Positions 5,511 to 45,531 of a DNA stretch of 64,000 bases are shown in pieces (within the stretch, counting starts at the first letter, position 1; each line of letters starts with the position of its first letter). A model generated the notes under the pieces. That model was not told where the DNA came from and did not search any database. It saw only the letters and a program-made list of their open reading frames with translations. The position numbers and the translations under genes are program-made. Origin of the DNA: a virus (taxonomy: Duplodnaviria; Caudoviricetes); IMG/VR virus record IMGVR_UViG_2595698455_000001, positions 88,428 through 152,427 of that record; one strand, 5' to 3'.

Positions 5511-5792
5511 TTAGAACAAATGCTCACCTTCTACATGGTATGCTAACACGCCGTCAGAACATTCAAAATACATGTTATCGTATTCCCACAGAGCAGTGAT
5601 TTCCTCACCCTGGCAAACTACTGAAAACTTCGGCTGGCTGGTCATAACCGGAAATTTTTCAGGGGAAGAGATTGGGGTGAATTTGGCATTTCTGACGACC
5701 ATACCAACAATTTGCTGCAATGTTACTTTGTAACGAGAGTGAGTGATAGTGCCAGCATTCAGGGCTTCGGTCAATTGCGCTTTAGTTGTCAT
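5511..5792 (-). CDS. Hypothetical protein
   Basis: ORF with AAGGA RBS and TTCAAT-type promoter upstream. Confidence 0.65.
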   Translation of the reverse strand: MTTKAQLTEALNAGTITHSRYKVTLQQIVGMVVRNAKFTPISSPEKFPVMTSQPKFSVVCQGEEITALWEYDNMYFECSDGVLAYHVEGEHLF

Positions 5793-5895
5793 GATATAGT
5801 TCCTTCATTTCAGAGTCAGTGTTGTGCTGCTTATGGAATGAAGTATACGGGGTTTATTGAAGAAGTAAACCCCGTTTATTGAATAAATTTAAAAT

Positions 5896-6131
5896 TTATT
5901 TGAAGCGGTCGGGAAGGGTGTCGTGCAGTTCAGCTGACATAACCAGGAACTTGCCATCTTTGGTCGGGAAGCAATAGTCCTTTTTCACGATCTTCAGGTG
6001 CTCTGCGGTAGCCCGAACACACTCATCGGTGATATCGGTCTTTTTGCCAACCCACATGGACTTGACTGTGTCCAGAGTACCCTGATAAATGGTTCCACCA
6101 ACGGGCTTGCGCCGATAGTTTTGATTCTCAT
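5896..6131 (-). pseudogene. Small phage protein broken by a 1-nt frameshift (or sequencing error)
   Basis: MRIKTIGASPL continues in another frame as GTIYQGTLDTVKSMWVGKKTDIT..RFK*; span 236 nt, one short of a codon multiple. Confidence 0.65.
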
Positions 6132-39880: not shown

Positions 39881-39993
39881 CGCTTTTGTCAATAAAGAAT
39901 CGTAGTAAATTTGTATGCACGGGGGGGTTATCCTAGTCTCGTAAGGTGATGCTCCTAACATTCAACAACTATCTTAACTAAGAGGACACAAAT

Positions 39994-40152: not shown

Positions 40153-40302
40153 TCAAACAACACAGAAATAGAGATTTGGGAGAAATCCCATTGTGGAGGT
40201 TATGAATTAACTTGATTCATTATCTCACTATTTCTTGCCGGAAATAAGTATGATCAACGAGGAGAGGGCACGGTCTGTACCCTCTCCAAAATTTAAAGTT
40301 TT

Positions 40303-40328
40303 GTCAATAAATGGTAACAAAGTATAGT
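40303..40328 (+). promoter_or_regulatory. TCAAT-N14-TATAxT promoter ahead of the RNA island
   Basis: GTCAAT 40303-08, TATAGT 40323-28. Confidence 0.6.
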
Positions 40329-40334
40329 TAACCC

Positions 40335-41067
40335 ACTGAACGAAAGCTGTTAGGGTACTTGACAAACACTTGAGATTGAAGTTGTATATGATATATACCA
40401 GTTCAATTTTGTAACGCTCTCCACCCCAACAACGGTTTCCGTGGGCAGGGTGTGTTATCCGAAGGCATAGAGAGTCAATGCCGAGGCCGTCCGATGGCGC
40501 GTAAACGGGGTTAACCTGATCCCTCGATAAACCACGGATAAAACAGTGTCGTTACCTCGGCGTTAAGAGGAGCCTGGGTGAAGTGTTACTCTACGTTGGC
40601 GGGGCTATCAACCCCAATCTTGCCTCCGAGTGATACCAACCAAGCCTAGTTTGGTCCGAGCGTTAGAGGACAAGTAACTGAGAATAACCAGTTGCGAGTT
40701 GCAGCTTCGGTTGCAACTTTGATGGACTTGGAAACAGGTTTATGAAAGTTGTATCCAACCCGATCTTGCAAGCCCGTATCCCTGTATGGTCAAGACTTGC
40801 AAGTGGAAAGCCCTGGAAAAATAAACGCCTGTTGTGAGGCTATAGTGCGAGCCAATGACCAACAGAAGCGCGTTGCCGTGAGGCGCACAAAGAGGCCTGC
40901 ATGAACTGATCATGCACAAACGGGATAGAGGGTTGACAGTCCTTGGTTGGATGCACAATAGATTATGGGGCGATAGTTTAAGGGATAGCCGTCCGGACGG
41001 TAATTCCCCAGAGAGAACAGCTGGAGGCCAATCCAGCAGGTGAGGTGAAAAGCCTCAGACCCCGCCA
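40335..41067 (+). ncRNA. Large structured non-coding RNA, family unassigned; 5' end estimated from the promoter
   Basis: No credible ORF; many stems, cUUCGg and GAAA tetraloops, long-range pairs, ends GCCA. Confidence 0.7.
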
Positions 41068-41072
41068 ATTCA

Positions 41073-41261
41073 GTTCCCGTTGTATGGCAGTATCTCTGAA
41101 GCTCTTTCACCCGTGCAGATTGAGGCTGTAAGGTTAAATGAAGAGATAGGCTTGGATACAGGCGAACGTGAAGGTAGACATCTGAGTACCGGACTGCACG
41201 GACTGGGGAAGGTTGTTGAGAATAACGGAAGTTGGGGGTTCGACTCCCTCAGGGAACGCCA
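41073..41261 (+). ncRNA. 189-nt tRNA-like RNA
   Basis: GTTCCC/GGGAAC+GCCA acceptor, GGGGG-TTCGACT-CCCTC T-arm, oversized core. Confidence 0.75.
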
Positions 41262-41379
41262 AATATTGTTGGACTGCCAACATGCTCTGGTCTACGGCAG
41301 GCGAGATGGGATCGCGGGATTGAAATACCGCCTCGGGAGCACCTAAATAAACCAGTTGTTCAATAAACAATTGGTGAGT

Positions 41380-41565
41380 ATGATGAAATCATTCAGTGAT
41401 TATCTCAATGAATGTAACGACGAGCCGATGGTTGAGTTCGTCGAAAAGCGCGGTGACAAGTGGGTTGTTCTTGACCACACTAAGACGAAGGTTCTTGGTA
41501 CACATGACACCAAAGCTGGCGCTGATTCCCAATTAAAGGCGATCGAAGCGAATAAGTACGAATAA
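41380..41565 (+). CDS. Small protein with capsid-targeting-like leader
   Basis: MKSFSDYLNE leader; CTAAATA at 41343. Confidence 0.7.
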   Translation: MMKSFSDYLNECNDEPMVEFVEKRGDKWVVLDHTKTKVLGTHDTKAGADSQLKAIEANKYE

Positions 41566-41566
41566 A

Positions 41567-41643
41567 GATGGTGTAGTTCAGTTGGTTAGAACGTGCGACT
41601 CATAATCGCTTTGTCACTGGTTCAAGTCCTGCCGCCATCGCCA
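41567..41643 (+). tRNA. tRNA with CAT anticodon (Met or Ile2)
   Basis: Cloverleaf, GCGA-CTCATAA-TCGC anticodon arm, GGTTCAAGT, CCA end; T-stem imperfect. Confidence 0.88.
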
Positions 41644-41650
41644 GAATTAT

Positions 41651-41781
41651 GTCGGGTCTTACAGGATGAAATAGAGATCCTGTTTTGATGTACAAGGAAG
41701 CATATTATTCAAAGTGAACATATGATAGCTTTGAAGAAATGCAAACTAAAGATTAGGGTTTGAATCCCTCGCCCGACGGCA
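41651..41781 (+). ncRNA. 131-nt tRNA-like RNA, possibly degenerate
   Basis: GTCGGGT/GCCCGAC acceptor, AGGG-TTTGAAT-CCCT T-arm-like, ends GGCA. Confidence 0.6.
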
Positions 41782-41787
41782 AATAAT

Positions 41788-41892
41788 GGGTGTGAAACGA
41801 AAGCAAGTAAGCACGAAGTAAGCCAGCGACAGTCCTGTGTGACAGCTCCAGAGCCGAACGGAATCTGAACCCGACGAAAGTAACACCCACCA
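41788..41892 (+). ncRNA. 105-nt ACCA-terminated RNA
   Basis: GGGTGT/ACACCC terminal stem plus ACCA. Confidence 0.55.
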
Positions 41893-41960
41893 GTTTCAGA
41901 GTGTAAGAGCTGCAGTAGGTGCACCCCTGCGGATTGCTACACCGTACACTCTGATTCAAA

Positions 41961-42035
41961 TCTACTGTCACGTGGATTGGCTGAGGAAGGATGGCCGATG
42001 TCCTCGAGCGTGACCCAGCACGTGGCGGTAGACCA
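41961..42035 (+). ncRNA. 75-nt CCA-terminated RNA with a 13-14 bp terminal helix
   Basis: TCTACTGTCACGTG/CACGTGGCGGTAGA plus CCA. Confidence 0.6.
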
Positions 42036-42361
42036 AACACGGTAAGCGTTGCAGCCAGCTGTGTATAGGCCAGAAGGCACTGGTCGCCTTAACAGGCAGA
42101 TGAAATGCTCAATCGGGTGTGAAGCCCGTCCTTATTACGCTCGGTCAAGCAGTCTGTTTGTAGACGGTCGGTAAAGGTTTTGCAAGACCTAAACTGGCTA
42201 TCAAACGGATGAGGCGCGACTCTCTGGGTTGATCACCAGAGTACTGAGGTTCAACTCCCACTCACCCAGCCCAGATGGAATGGGTCCATCATCGCAAATC
42301 AGTGTTAGGGTAGTACCAGTGCAAAGTGTGTAGTCATTCAACCCATCCTCAACGATGTGGT

Positions 42362-42391
42362 AAGCCGGATATGGAAATCCGGCTTTCTTTT
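42362..42391 (+). terminator. Terminator closing the RNA island
   Basis: AAGCCGGAT..ATCCGGCTT followed by T-run. Confidence 0.8.
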
Positions 42392-43923: not shown

Positions 43924-45531
43924 ATGAACAAGATATGCATTTGCTGCGGCGAGGCGTTTGAAACAAATAGAAATGCCGACAAATATTGCTCACCCACTTG
44001 CATGCAATTCTTTATGAACCAAAAGGAATATCTGACAGAAGAAATAAGGTCTGAGTTGAGTGTTGGTGACCACAGAGAATGGGTTAATAAAAATTTTATC
44101 AGTTCCGGCCTTATCAAAGTCAGATTCTTGTCACACAGGCTTACCAAATTATTTTACGGTGTTGACATCGAAAAGGAAGTGAATTCCTTTCCCCATAGCC
44201 CCAGATGCAACATACAACAAAAATGGTTCGCCTGGCTTTATGAAATTAAGCACAACGGGTGCGTTGTTTGTGGTGAGCCTGTGCAATTTCATGAAACTTC
44301 ATATAGGAAATTCTGCTCCAACAAATGTATGAATAAATCTATGGCGATTGGAGGCGTGCACAGGCATACATTAAATTCAGCCATAGAAGAAAAATATGGC
44401 GAGCACCCCATGAGGCAAGAACACATAAAAAATAAATTAAGAAATGTATTCTTGGAAAAATATGGGGTTCCGAGTAATTTATGTCTTGAGTCCAACAAAA
44501 TAGCAGCCAGGCAAACATTGTTTGAACGTTACGGAGCATACCATCCCCTGCAATCTCCCATTATCATGAGTAAATTGGAAGAAACCAATATGTCTCGTTA
44601 CGGCGTTCCTCATGTTCTTTGTAAAGGTAGTCCAATATGTGAACTTGCTCTTGAAAGAATGAGATATTCGTTGTCCGGGGGTTCCTCAGCAGAATTGGAG
44701 TTGGGGGTGTTTTTGAAAGAAATGGGGGTGGGATACGAGGCTTCAAACCGGTCTGTTCTTTCTGGAAAGGAATTGGACATCTACTGTCCGGGGCATAAAC
44801 TGGCAATTGAGTTCAATGGGCTGTATTGGCATTGTGAACATAGGAAAGTGGGTAAAGACTATCATCTAGAGAAGGTCGAGGCATGTGAAGCCCAGGGCAT
44901 CCAGTTAATCCACATCTGGGAAGATGAGTGGACCAACAAAATGGATGTTGTGAAGGATATGTTGTCGGCTAAAATGGGACTGAATAGACCCAGTTCTTAC
45001 GCAAGGCAAATGTCAACTAAAGAATATGTTTATTCCGAAGTTTTTGAGTTTCTTGAACAACACCATATACAGGGGGCTGTGATCGCCAGCCACTATATTG
45101 GGTTGTCGGACAAACAAGGCGAAATACAGGCGGTGATGTTGTTCACCAAACGGGCGCATGGTATAGAACTGGTGAGATTTGCTTCCAACAACTGCCACGG
45201 CGCTTTCAGCAAACTACTGTCTCACGCTATAAAATACTGTCTGGATCCGAACCAGAAGATATATTCGTTTGGTGATCGCTGTGTTGTAAGCAGATTGAAA
45301 AATGTTTACCTACACAACGGGTTTGTTGAAAAAGAAGTTCTTCCCCCGGATTACAAGTATGTTGTGAACAACTTCACGAAGAGGGATCATAAATTCAACT
45401 GGCGTAAAGAGAAGTTTAAATCCCTGGGGTATGATGTTGACGGCAAGACTGAAGATATGTTGGCTTTAGAACATGGCATTAGTAAGATATGGGGTTGTGG
45501 GCTAATCCGTTATGAGTATGAAGGAAAATAG
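43924..45531 (+). CDS. Hef-like free-standing homing endonuclease, paralog 3
   Basis: Same architecture, four YG repeats, ELDIYCPGHKLAIEFNGLYWH. Confidence 0.8.
   Translation: MNKICICCGEAFETNRNADKYCSPTCMQFFMNQKEYLTEEIRSELSVGDHREWVNKNFISSGLIKVRFLSHRLTKLFYGVDIEKEVNSFPHSPRCNIQQKWFAWLYEIKHNGCVVCGEPVQFHETSYRKFCSNKCMNKSMAIGGVHRHTLNSAIEEKYGEHPMRQEHIKNKLRNVFLEKYGVPSNLCLESNKIAARQTLFERYGAYHPLQSPIIMSKLEETNMSRYGVPHVLCKGSPICELALERMRYSLSGGSSAELELGVFLKEMGVGYEASNRSVLSGKELDIYCPGHKLAIEFNGLYWHCEHRKVGKDYHLEKVEACEAQGIQLIHIWEDEWTNKMDVVKDMLSAKMGLNRPSSYARQMSTKEYVYSEVFEFLEQHHIQGAVIASHYIGLSDKQGEIQAVMLFTKRAHGIELVRFASNNCHGAFSKLLSHAIKYCLDPNQKIYSFGDRCVVSRLKNVYLHNGFVEKEVLPPDYKYVVNNFTKRDHKFNWRKEKFKSLGYDVDGKTEDMLALEHGISKIWGCGLIRYEYEGK

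Follow-up and report, generated by a model that had tools for sequence, protein, structure and literature searches.

What does a phage keep in 2 kb of DNA that lies between a promoter-like site and a terminator-like hairpin and holds just one small gene and one tRNA? We addressed this question in a window of 64,000 nucleotides, the whole stretch of DNA that was analysed, which is part of a 152-kb genome, and in 30 relatives' loci, a set in which some phages are counted twice. All features described below are on the + strand. The upstream boundary is a promoter-like site, TTGTCA-16-TATAGT (40301-40328), which is conserved together with the leader block M0 in 13 relatives' loci; the exact 11-mer TTGTCAATAAA of this site recurs at 39886. 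The downstream boundary (42362-42391, block K, found in 7 loci) is an intrinsic-terminator-like element composed of a 9-bp hairpin and a T-run at 42362-42385. A preliminary description of this DNA had placed the bounds at 40303 and 42362, in agreement with these sites, and its statement that one small ORF and one tRNA lie between them also holds. The ORF is a protein gene of 61 aa (41380-41565, family phrog_3684) that is conserved in relatives, having 59-65 aa and in-frame indels in 10 distinct ones, and the tRNA occupies 41567-41643. The region is otherwise non-coding, as expected from its earlier designation as an RNA island: the 2-kb stretch is a tRNA island of an Ackermannviridae phage, made of RNA cassettes and not of coding sequence.

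It is extremely improbable that the island instead encodes several unannotated micro-proteins and that its apparent RNA structure is incidental. The records of Klebsiella phages May and Magnus, with many annotated 30-70-aa CDS across the region, speak for such coding, but the same DNA is left unannotated in the records of other relatives. Except for the gene at 41380-41565, no + strand ORF of at least 60 aa falls within a single conserved block, and the longer ORF at 41080-41346 (88 aa) spans two cassettes, C and C2, that are found separately in relatives. The variation among relatives is helix-compensatory and not codon-patterned.

The tRNA, with anticodon CAT, is detected by both ARAGORN and Rfam and is the sole tRNA of the 152-kb genome. 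It is chimeric, with a Met-type anticodon arm on an Asn-type body (acceptor, D-arm, T-arm and G73); every canonical tRNA has been lost from this phage. In the RF00005/ARAGORN test it alone passes, with 54.8 bits, and no second unit scores as a tRNA in Rfam even at E<=10 over 3.1 kb. Relaxed ARAGORN settings (ps80, long introns) gave 10 calls, evident noise included, among which cassette C is called only with a 98-nt 'intron' and cassette D only with a 32-nt 'intron'. The prediction that tRNA finders would miss most of the units is borne out, with just one tRNA detected by the two programs.

Comparison with the 30 loci resolves the rest of the island into discrete cassettes. Gain, loss and reordering affect each of them as a whole, exactly at the junctions and interchangeably with tRNA genes, and their order is variable, as in locus L029. 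In relatives, genes for tRNA-Met, Asn, Tyr, Ser, Ile, Arg, Trp and Gln are located 0-7 nt from cassette ends; further conserved blocks H, I and J (42036-42361) have tRNA-Tyr, Ile, Ser or Gln at their junctions in relatives. The measured distance between units is 4-7 nt, in line with the 5-7 nt spacers that had been likened to those of tRNA operons. Cassettes C, D, E and G, delimited independently by synteny in the 30 loci, correspond to the previously proposed units 41073-41261, 41651-41781, 41788-41892 and 41961-42035, with exact agreement of the 3' ends and 5' ends within 0-10 nt. Syntenic alignment and covariation analysis revealed compensatory changes in cassettes A, F, G and B, and the comparison of relatives shows most of the units to be predicted non-tRNA RNAs that are conserved at the level of RNA structure on the + strand. 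Yersinia phage CAU_YEP3 has no island, so the island is dispensable.

The first part of the island had been described as one RNA of about 40335-41067. This view had to be given up, since the segment breaks up into five blocks (M0, X, Y, A and B), and relatives place a tRNA between A and B. Block M0 (40329-40371) is the 5' leader of the putative island transcript and has 82-91% identity in 13 loci. Block X (40372-40634) is a 263-nt non-coding block unique to this phage, in whose position relatives have 650-1860 nt of other sequence; no homologue of X was found among 50,697 phage records or in the relatives' loci, and M0 and X together show no excess folding (minimum-free-energy z = -0.95). Block Y (40635-40741) is conserved in 24 loci with 74-94% identity, contains a UUCG-capped hairpin (z = -3.2) and is weakly tRNA-like, solely at the relaxed ARAGORN threshold.

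The best-supported unit is module A (40745-40960), a multi-branched RNA of ~215 nt. It has a closing helix and a GNRA hairpin, and its invariant loop motifs include a UGGU in the best-conserved loop. Among 26 distinct enteric sequences its 52 pairs have 99.5% paired cells and two-sided changes at 14 of the 52, compared to 0-1 in slid controls; the addition of four Vibrio-phage lineages raises the number to 30. The + strand is fixed for this module by invariant or frequent G-U pairs, and its minimum-free-energy z is -3.4. It is common to Salmonella-group and Vibrio phages, between which the neighbouring protein is only ~26% identical. On this comparative evidence, module A is a new, deeply conserved structured RNA. 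No Rfam match was found at E<=10 for 236 nt of the window containing it or for 221 nt of its Vibrio homologue. Among these comparisons an RNase P RNA was considered and rejected, as neither sequence matches an RNase P model at E<=10; the GGAAAG..CCUGG segment, which we take to resemble CR-I of RNase P RNA, is not conserved in the Vibrio homologues. Of the 30 loci that a pattern scan of metagenomes yielded for module A, just two are real (L029 and L055); the other 28 gained no confirmation from the model and were rejected, and 16 pattern loci in unrelated MAGs (genome contigs) were judged by their context to be chance. A second pattern applied to IMG/VR retrieved the same 20 contigs as the first, and a search for relatives with the neighbouring 190-aa protein gave 1 locus.

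The preliminary description had also proposed a uniform array of NCCA-terminated RNAs. Such ends are indeed present in B, C, E and G, and the uniformity does not hold, since these are only four of ~12 non-tRNA blocks. No NCCA or other tRNA-like end is found in A, F, C2 and Y, and neither A nor F, the most widespread cassette, has any tRNA-like feature. Where it occurs, the NCCA end is kept in 50 of the 51 distinct homologues of B, C, E and G while the flanks vary, and the conserved part reaches from the helix start to CCA and no further. The support for the cassettes is comparative. In the single sequence, a helix followed by N and CCA shows no excess over other parts of the window and is at chance level: the rest of the window leads one to expect 4.7 cases with 7-bp stems and 10.8 with 6-bp stems, and 2 and 11, respectively, were observed; 406 of 500 Markov resamples reach the observed count.

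Cassette B (40968-41067; 14 distinct sequences) is a 100-nt RNA with a cloverleaf-like four-way junction, closed by GGGG...CCCC and followed by GCCA, which is kept in all 14 while the flanks vary; two-sided changes occur at 3 pairs (0 in slid controls), and z is -2.75. Cassette G (41961-42035; 13 distinct sequences) is a 75-nt RNA with a 14-bp terminal stem and then CCA, the latter kept in 12 of 13; two-sided changes are present at 4 pairs (0-2 in slid controls), with z of -2.4. Cassette E (41788-41892; 19 distinct sequences) is a 105-nt RNA with a 7-bp terminal helix and ACCA in 19 of 19. Its interior is sequence-conserved and weakly structured, with repeated CGAA(A)G motifs, and folds no better than shuffles (z = 0.0; covariation weak). 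In the comparison with Y RNA, one GNCGAANG-like word in E counts as chance, since by our estimate 2 kb would contain it at about this frequency. Covariation says little for or against the terminal helices of B and E, which are nearly invariant.

In the test for a tRNA-like domain, defined by an acceptor stem of ~7 bp, next to it on the 3' side a T-stem of 5-6 bp with a 7-nt loop of UUCRANY type, and NCCA, cassettes B, E and G carry only the terminal helix and NCCA, and all three elements are found in C, in 5 of 5 sequences. Cassette C (41073-41261) is a 189-nt chimera in which a 6-7-bp acceptor stem, a canonical T-arm (loop UUCGACU) and RCCA, present in all five distinct sequences, are joined to a non-tRNA body of ~115 nt; the whole folds no better than shuffles (z = +0.5), and the order E-C in locus L029 identifies it as a movable cassette. 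The 131-nt chimera D (41651-41781; 6 distinct sequences; z = -3.4) has a 7-bp acceptor stem and a T-arm-like hairpin with loop UUUGAAU but ends in GRCA: its tail is GGCA or GACA, with CCA in none of the six. It is found in Kuttervirus loci and absent from Agtrevirus loci. Profile searches with nhmmer against Vibrio, T5-like, KB57 and As2-like loci gave nothing significant for B, D, E and G and generic T-arms only for C.

Two other cassettes are common to other phage families. C2 (41262-41355), an independent, conserved structured cassette upstream of the small gene, has 90-98% identity among 8 distinct sequences (z = -1.1), and its homologue in the tRNA cluster of Klebsiella phage KB57 (Vequintavirinae), located before tRNA-Lys, contains two compensatory helix changes. 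F (41897-41956) is a 60-nt three-way-junction RNA without a CCA end; across 13 sequences two-sided changes are found at 5 of its 15 pairs, including a covarying closing helix, and z is -2.6. It is present in the tRNA clusters of 72-kb As2-like phages and of T5-like phages; in the latter a gap of 3 nt separates it from the preceding tRNA-Lys, and a ~125-nt unit with an acceptor-like helix and two T-arm-like hairpins follows it. A pattern scan for F gave 31 loci in 24 distinct regions, of which 9 loci (8 regions) with no nearby tRNA and no closing helix were rejected as chance. Overall, cassettes interleave with tRNA genes in the 30 loci and in three other phage groups.

These data bear on the idea that the units are pseudogenes, tRNA genes in decay that were left together with inert filler in a recombination hot spot and are without function at the RNA level. 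The phage is clearly losing tRNA genes, tRNA parts remain in C, D and Y (some of which are called by relaxed ARAGORN), X is lineage-specific without excess folding, and one relative lives without the island. Decay does not account for the compensatory changes that maintain helices in A, F, G and B, for an NCCA that is kept while the adjacent spacers drift, for the conservation of A from Salmonella-group to Vibrio phages and the sharing of F and C2 by several phage families, or for A and F, which lack any tRNA similarity. We judge this explanation very unlikely.

We favour the view that the tRNA island is one promoter-to-terminator unit of structured-RNA cassettes, probably transcribed as a single precursor that is cut by host tRNA-maturation enzymes. 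Sequencing depth gives a weak hint that the island of a relative is expressed: in run X23, probably an RNA run (the label is guessed), a 3,673-nt contig over the island has a depth of 83.6, compared to 3.2-6.1 for the 9 other contigs listed, and in a DNA run depth is flat (129-147). Runs X19, X20 and X24 cover mainly the tRNA and are uninformative. No CCA-adding enzyme is encoded in the 152-kb phage genome, therefore all processing would depend on the host. RNase P is described as using the acceptor stem and RCCA and as cleaving non-tRNA substrates (PMC11143913). In the proposed mechanism, the precursor reaching from promoter to terminator would be converted to stable small RNAs by the host enzymes: cleavage by RNase P would fall at G(+1) of the acceptor-like helices, after AU-rich leaders such as AUUAU|G, and the AAU-rich spacers would be removed up to CCA by RNase E with 3' exonucleases. 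Once released, the RNAs may act as mimics of tRNA ends (ligands or decoys) or have other roles in trans; module A, which lies upstream of the first tRNA, would be set free as an RNA derived from the leader.

An alternative role for the cassettes is that of cis-acting punctuation, similar to t-elements and without function in trans, for which the t-elements of plant mitochondria provide a precedent as cis processing signals (PMC1920247). As structured leaders and spacers, the cassettes would serve the tRNAs and the small mRNA on the same transcript by guiding how these are processed or folded or how stable they are; they would also protect a long untranslated transcript against Rho and RNases. 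This would fit the tight spacing (0-7 nt), the location of C2 directly before the small gene wherever both are present, and the preference of module A for one neighbour: in 27 of 30 enteric loci the first tRNA to follow A is tRNA-Met, at a distance of <=12 nt in 10 of them, and the gap is 5 nt in Vibrio phage K364. However, A, B, C, D, E, F and G are retained in our phage despite the loss of all tRNAs but one, and A no longer adjoins any tRNA; cassettes reorder freely, C2 of KB57 precedes a tRNA and not a gene, and the conservation inside E and A far exceeds what a processing signal needs. A purely cis-acting role is unlikely in our assessment.

Within the favoured view of a host-processed island, a more specific function can be imagined, namely that the cassettes form an exchangeable toolkit of tRNA-end mimics, carried by large virulent phages in their tRNA islands, which, with module A as a partner, serves as an RNA-only module for counter-defence or translation control. 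We consider this proposal quite unlikely as it stands. In such a toolkit B, E and G would be NCCA-tailed minihelices and C and D T-arm chimeras, all released by RNase P, and these mimics would compete with tRNAs for the host factors by which tRNA 3' ends are read, modified or attacked. By analogy with the T-box bulge or the P15 loop of RNase P, the UGGU of module A would bind ACCA ends.

The first stable non-tRNA RNAs to be recognised in a phage tRNA cluster were RNAC and RNAD of T4, and RNAs of this kind are still unexplained. The island described here suggests a phenomenon much richer than two RNAs, with modular families, some tRNA-derived and some not, that are shuffled like tRNA genes, are common to Ackermannviridae, T5-like Demerecviridae, Vequintavirinae and As2-like phages, and were retained by a phage that shed its tRNAs. 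It offers defined, deletable cassettes in easily grown phages, and module A is suited to structural and functional study. In the current view, phage tRNAs counter tRNA-targeting defences (PMC10264068); if tRNA-like ends are used as we propose, a layer of RNA mimicry would be added to it.

About ten to a dozen structured cassettes fit no known RNA family: Rfam searches of the whole window (gathering threshold) and of 3.1 kb (E<=10) gave nothing but the tRNA above chance. HCV_SL8001 (E 0.68) and a CRISPR repeat (E 7.2) were rejected as chance-level matches. Two known RNAs, tmRNA and YrlA, resemble C and D as non-tRNA RNAs with a T-arm and an acceptor-like stem, and YrlA of M. smegmatis is reported to be cut by RNase P and to receive CCA (PMC4201824). 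A tmRNA was rejected as a candidate, with none found in ARAGORN tmRNA mode, no Rfam match and no tag reading frame; tmRNA also differs by its G3-U70 pair, in place of which B, C and E carry G3-C70 or U3-A70 in the acceptor stem. A Y RNA or YrlA was likewise rejected, as there is no Rfam match and no Ro60/TROVE gene in the 152-kb genome. A catalogue of more than 10,000 phage RNA motifs includes some tRNA-like ones (Fremin et al. 2023, PMC10690425); two cassette motifs and the term 'Ackermannviridae' are absent from the six supplementary files that the search covered.

Among phage systems, no paper on non-coding RNAs of Ackermannviridae or on the stable RNAs of T5 was found in the literature collection searched. 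The tRNA region of phage T5 encodes 'stable RNAs', and T5-like phages carry F by tRNA-Lys and then the ~125-nt acceptor-helix unit. GOLLD and ROOL adjoin tRNA genes in phages and have a size of ~580-800 nt. Both were rejected as identities of module A, since their Rfam models do not match and ~215 nt is too short for a 580-800-nt RNA; the host range differs as well, module A being found in Enterobacterales and Vibrio phages. They are described as large ornate structured RNAs of unknown function (10.1101/2024.12.08.627333). The t-elements of plant mitochondria share with the cassettes an acceptor-like helix, with or without a T-arm, within a longer transcript and as a possible cut site. In contrast to these elements, which are cis signals at mRNA ends, the cassettes are conserved well beyond the cut site and persist where tRNAs are gone. 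The blastn search gave no T4-like phage among the matches listed. RNAC and RNAD of T4 (species 1 and 2 stable RNAs) are likewise non-tRNA RNAs inside a phage tRNA cluster, that of a virulent phage, and their function is given as still unknown (PMC9697503). The cassettes have the same type of location, inside the tRNA cluster and on the tRNA strand, and differ from the T4 pair in their number (~12), in comprising several unrelated folds, and in belonging to a different phage family.

The region belongs to a viral record of 152,427 bp and is matched piecewise, at 80-95% identity, by ~250 Ackermannviridae genomes, none of which reaches 80% coverage; the nearest matches are Agtrevirus phages. In relatives the syntenic place, flanked by the gene of a conserved 190-aa protein and by tail-needle-knob genes, is their tRNA island, with tRNA-Met, Asn, Tyr, Ser and others. 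In agreement with the preliminary description, the + strand island lies between TTGTCA-16-TATAGT (40301-40328), a promoter-like site, and a hairpin resembling a terminator (42362-42385), and contains one small gene and one tRNA. The sole credible gene (41380-41565, family phrog_3684) encodes a product conserved in 10 distinct relatives at 59-65 aa, with in-frame length changes. ARAGORN and Rfam agree on a single tRNA (41567-41643), the only one left in the genome. Its acceptor stem, D-arm, T-arm and G73 resemble the tRNA-Asn occupying the same slot in relatives and its anticodon arm (CAT) resembles their tRNA-Met, and thus it looks like a recombinant of an Asn-type body and a Met-type anticodon arm.

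Several other features were observed around the island. The exact 11-mer TTGTCAATAAA is found at 39886-39896 and 40301-40311, where its copies start two consecutive + strand units, a 52-aa gene and then the RNA island. At 41352 there is a nearly identical word, TTGTTCAATAAA. This 11-mer may be a phage promoter motif. An ORF for a 535-aa homing/HNH endonuclease (43924-45531, phrog_3339, E 1e-176) is missing in relatives, and contigs of two sequencing runs connect 43931 directly to 45578, skipping it. In Yersinia (locus L076, 7085-8287) and Vibrio (locus L082, 4260-5091) relatives, the gene of a PLP-dependent enzyme is found 1-3 kb downstream from the site that corresponds to the island.

Division of the island at break points against eight relatives, and placement of the blocks and ARAGORN tRNAs on 30 loci (some phages being fetched twice), revealed a mosaic in the order M0 (40329-40371), X (40372-40634), Y (40635-40741), A (40745-40960), B (40968-41067), C (41073-41261), C2 (41262-41355), the small gene, the tRNA, D (41651-41781), E (41788-41892), F (41897-41956), G (41961-42035), H, I and J (42036-42361), and the terminator block. 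Four of the units proposed in the preliminary description correspond, to the nucleotide at the 3' end, to C, D, E and G, and its first unit, taken there as a single RNA, comprises five separate blocks. Cassettes are gained or missing as complete units, genuine tRNA genes (Met, Asn, Tyr, Ser, Ile, Arg, Trp, Gln) lie 0-7 nt from cassette ends, and the order is variable, one locus (L029) having A, tRNA-Met, E, C, H and I. For the 263-nt X, neither the phage collection nor the retrieved loci contain a homologue. Yersinia phage CAU_YEP3, the closest relative judged by the flanking 190-aa protein (80.5% identity), lacks the entire RNA island, with just 463 nt between the flanking genes (5573-6037 of its locus) and no copy detected by the module A covariance model anywhere in its genome. 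As read off the alignments, without statistics, a unit ends in CCA (or ACA/GCA) followed by an AAU-like spacer, and many units begin with G after AUUAU or AUAAU. The island resembles an operon whose cassettes are conserved structured RNAs, lie on the same strand as the tRNA and can be exchanged for tRNA genes; they have been kept in a genome with a single remaining tRNA.

The strongest RNA case is module A, for which RNAalifold gives a structure of 52 pairs in 26 distinct sequences, with 99.5% of cells paired. Two-sided changes, in which both partners are altered and pairing is kept, affect 14 of the 52 pairs versus 0-1 in controls with the structure slid along the alignment, and none of 500 shuffles attains the observed value for four of five measures. 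Invariant or frequent G-U pairs settle the + strand. The covariance model finds a single copy in the genome and full-length matches in four Vibrio Ackermannviridae lineages (33.6, 23.5, 19.5 and 14.1 bits), where the neighbouring protein is only ~26% identical and the closing helix retains pairing with a wholly different sequence. With the Vibrio phages included, 30 of 52 pairs have two-sided changes versus 3-9 in slid controls (11 sequences, in an alignment fitted to the model and hence biased towards the structure). The first tRNA downstream of A is tRNA-Met in 27 of 30 enteric loci, and lies 5 nt from A in Vibrio phage K364. Module A is matched by no Rfam family, even with the search restricted to 236 nt. 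At least this cassette of the island is a new, deeply conserved RNA family.

The RNA reading of the preliminary description is also supported by compensatory changes in homologues of F, C2, G and B. The ~60-nt F forms a three-way junction with two-sided changes in 5 of 15 pairs (13 sequences), and is present 3 nt past tRNA-Lys in T5-like phages and 7 nt ahead of tRNA-Met in 72-kb As2-like phages. In phage KB57 (Vequintavirinae), a C2 homologue with two compensatory helix changes forms part of the tRNA cluster. Both F and C2 are cassette families found in more than one phage family. The 14-bp stem of G has four two-sided changes (0-2 in controls), and the four-way junction of B has three (0 in controls), its terminal helix being almost invariant. 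The structure of E is weak (three versus 0-2 in controls; folding z 0.0) although its sequence is strongly conserved.

Additional units were noticed beside these homologues. In As2-like phages (loci L119, ~501-590, and L106, ~1120-1204), an 85-nt unit immediately 5' of F has a 13-14-bp closing helix and ACCA. Its first pairs (G1-C72, G2-C71, G3-U70) and A73 match the alanine identity set, which would make it a candidate for AlaRS charging. In T5-like phages (L105, ~775-900; L107, L120 and L137), F is followed by an unannotated ~125-nt unit with a 7-bp terminal helix, two T-arm-like hairpins and a GAC(U/C) end instead of CCA. In KB57 (L104, ~1935-2024), an unannotated sequence resembling a type-II tRNA, with a CCA end and a variable arm that is long, immediately precedes the C2-like cassette.

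The closing helix with CCA, by which units had been delineated in the preliminary description, is at chance level as a single-sequence signal, since stems followed by one base and CCA that close units of 59-233 nt do not exceed in the island the expectation from the remaining window (7-bp stems, 2 observed versus 4.7 expected; 6-bp stems, 11 versus 10.8). Among distinct sequences, NCCA is conserved in B (14/14), E (19/19), G (12/13) and C (5/5), and conservation of these four starts at the first helix base and ends at CCA. The proposed NCCA ends hold for C, E and G, as well as B; D ends in GGCA or GACA. In C, a ~115-nt foreign body is enclosed by an acceptor stem of 6-7 bp, a canonical T-arm and R-CCA, and D combines a T-arm-like hairpin with an acceptor stem of 7 bp; in B, E and G tRNA-likeness is limited to the terminal helix and NCCA. 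As anticipated, units other than the tRNA are unmatched by ARAGORN and Rfam, the tRNA being the sole Rfam match over the island even at E<=10; these models give no support for the units as tRNA, tmRNA or Y RNA. Neither a Ro60 gene nor a CCA-adding enzyme was found in the genome. The conserved, poorly folding interior of E has four CGAA(A)G-type words, one of which fits GNCGAANG of bacterial Y RNAs (PMC4201824), a match judged to be at chance frequency.

Among the sequencing runs retrieved, none is a transcriptome of cells infected by this phage. In sequencing run X23, which is only guessed to be RNA and whose contigs carry no end or strand information, a 3,673-nt contig across a relative's island has a depth of 83.6, and nine further listed contigs across 19 kb have depths of 3.2-6.1; depth is even (129-147) in a DNA run. 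These depths hint weakly at abundant RNA. We propose that one co-transcript (40301 to 42385) would be cut at the acceptor-like helices by RNase P, an enzyme that depends on the acceptor stem together with RCCA and also has several non-tRNA substrates (PMC11143913). RNase E and exonuclease would trim the AU-rich spacers, and the products, mimics of tRNA ends among other small RNAs, would accumulate stably. The cassettes could instead serve purely as cis punctuation, with no role in trans; this explanation is ranked lower, since they persist here after tRNA loss and their order changes freely. We favor a putative trans role as ligands or decoys for tRNA-binding factors.

T5 has stable RNAs, which are among the closest known counterparts of the island RNAs. 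Also among them are RNAC and RNAD, likewise located in a phage tRNA cluster, that of T4, and listed as RNAs of unknown function (PMC9697503). The partial-tRNA design of C and D resembles that of YrlA (PMC4201824) and the tRNA-like domain of tmRNA, but by the models used the island units belong to neither group. In the literature covered, such RNAs were not described for Ackermannviridae, nor were the T5 stable RNAs, and the searched part of an extensive collection of phage RNA motifs contained neither two of the cassette motifs nor the name Ackermannviridae. Non-tRNA RNAs in phage tRNA clusters are known from before and unexplained, and the island is a variant of this arrangement with the A, F and C2 families.
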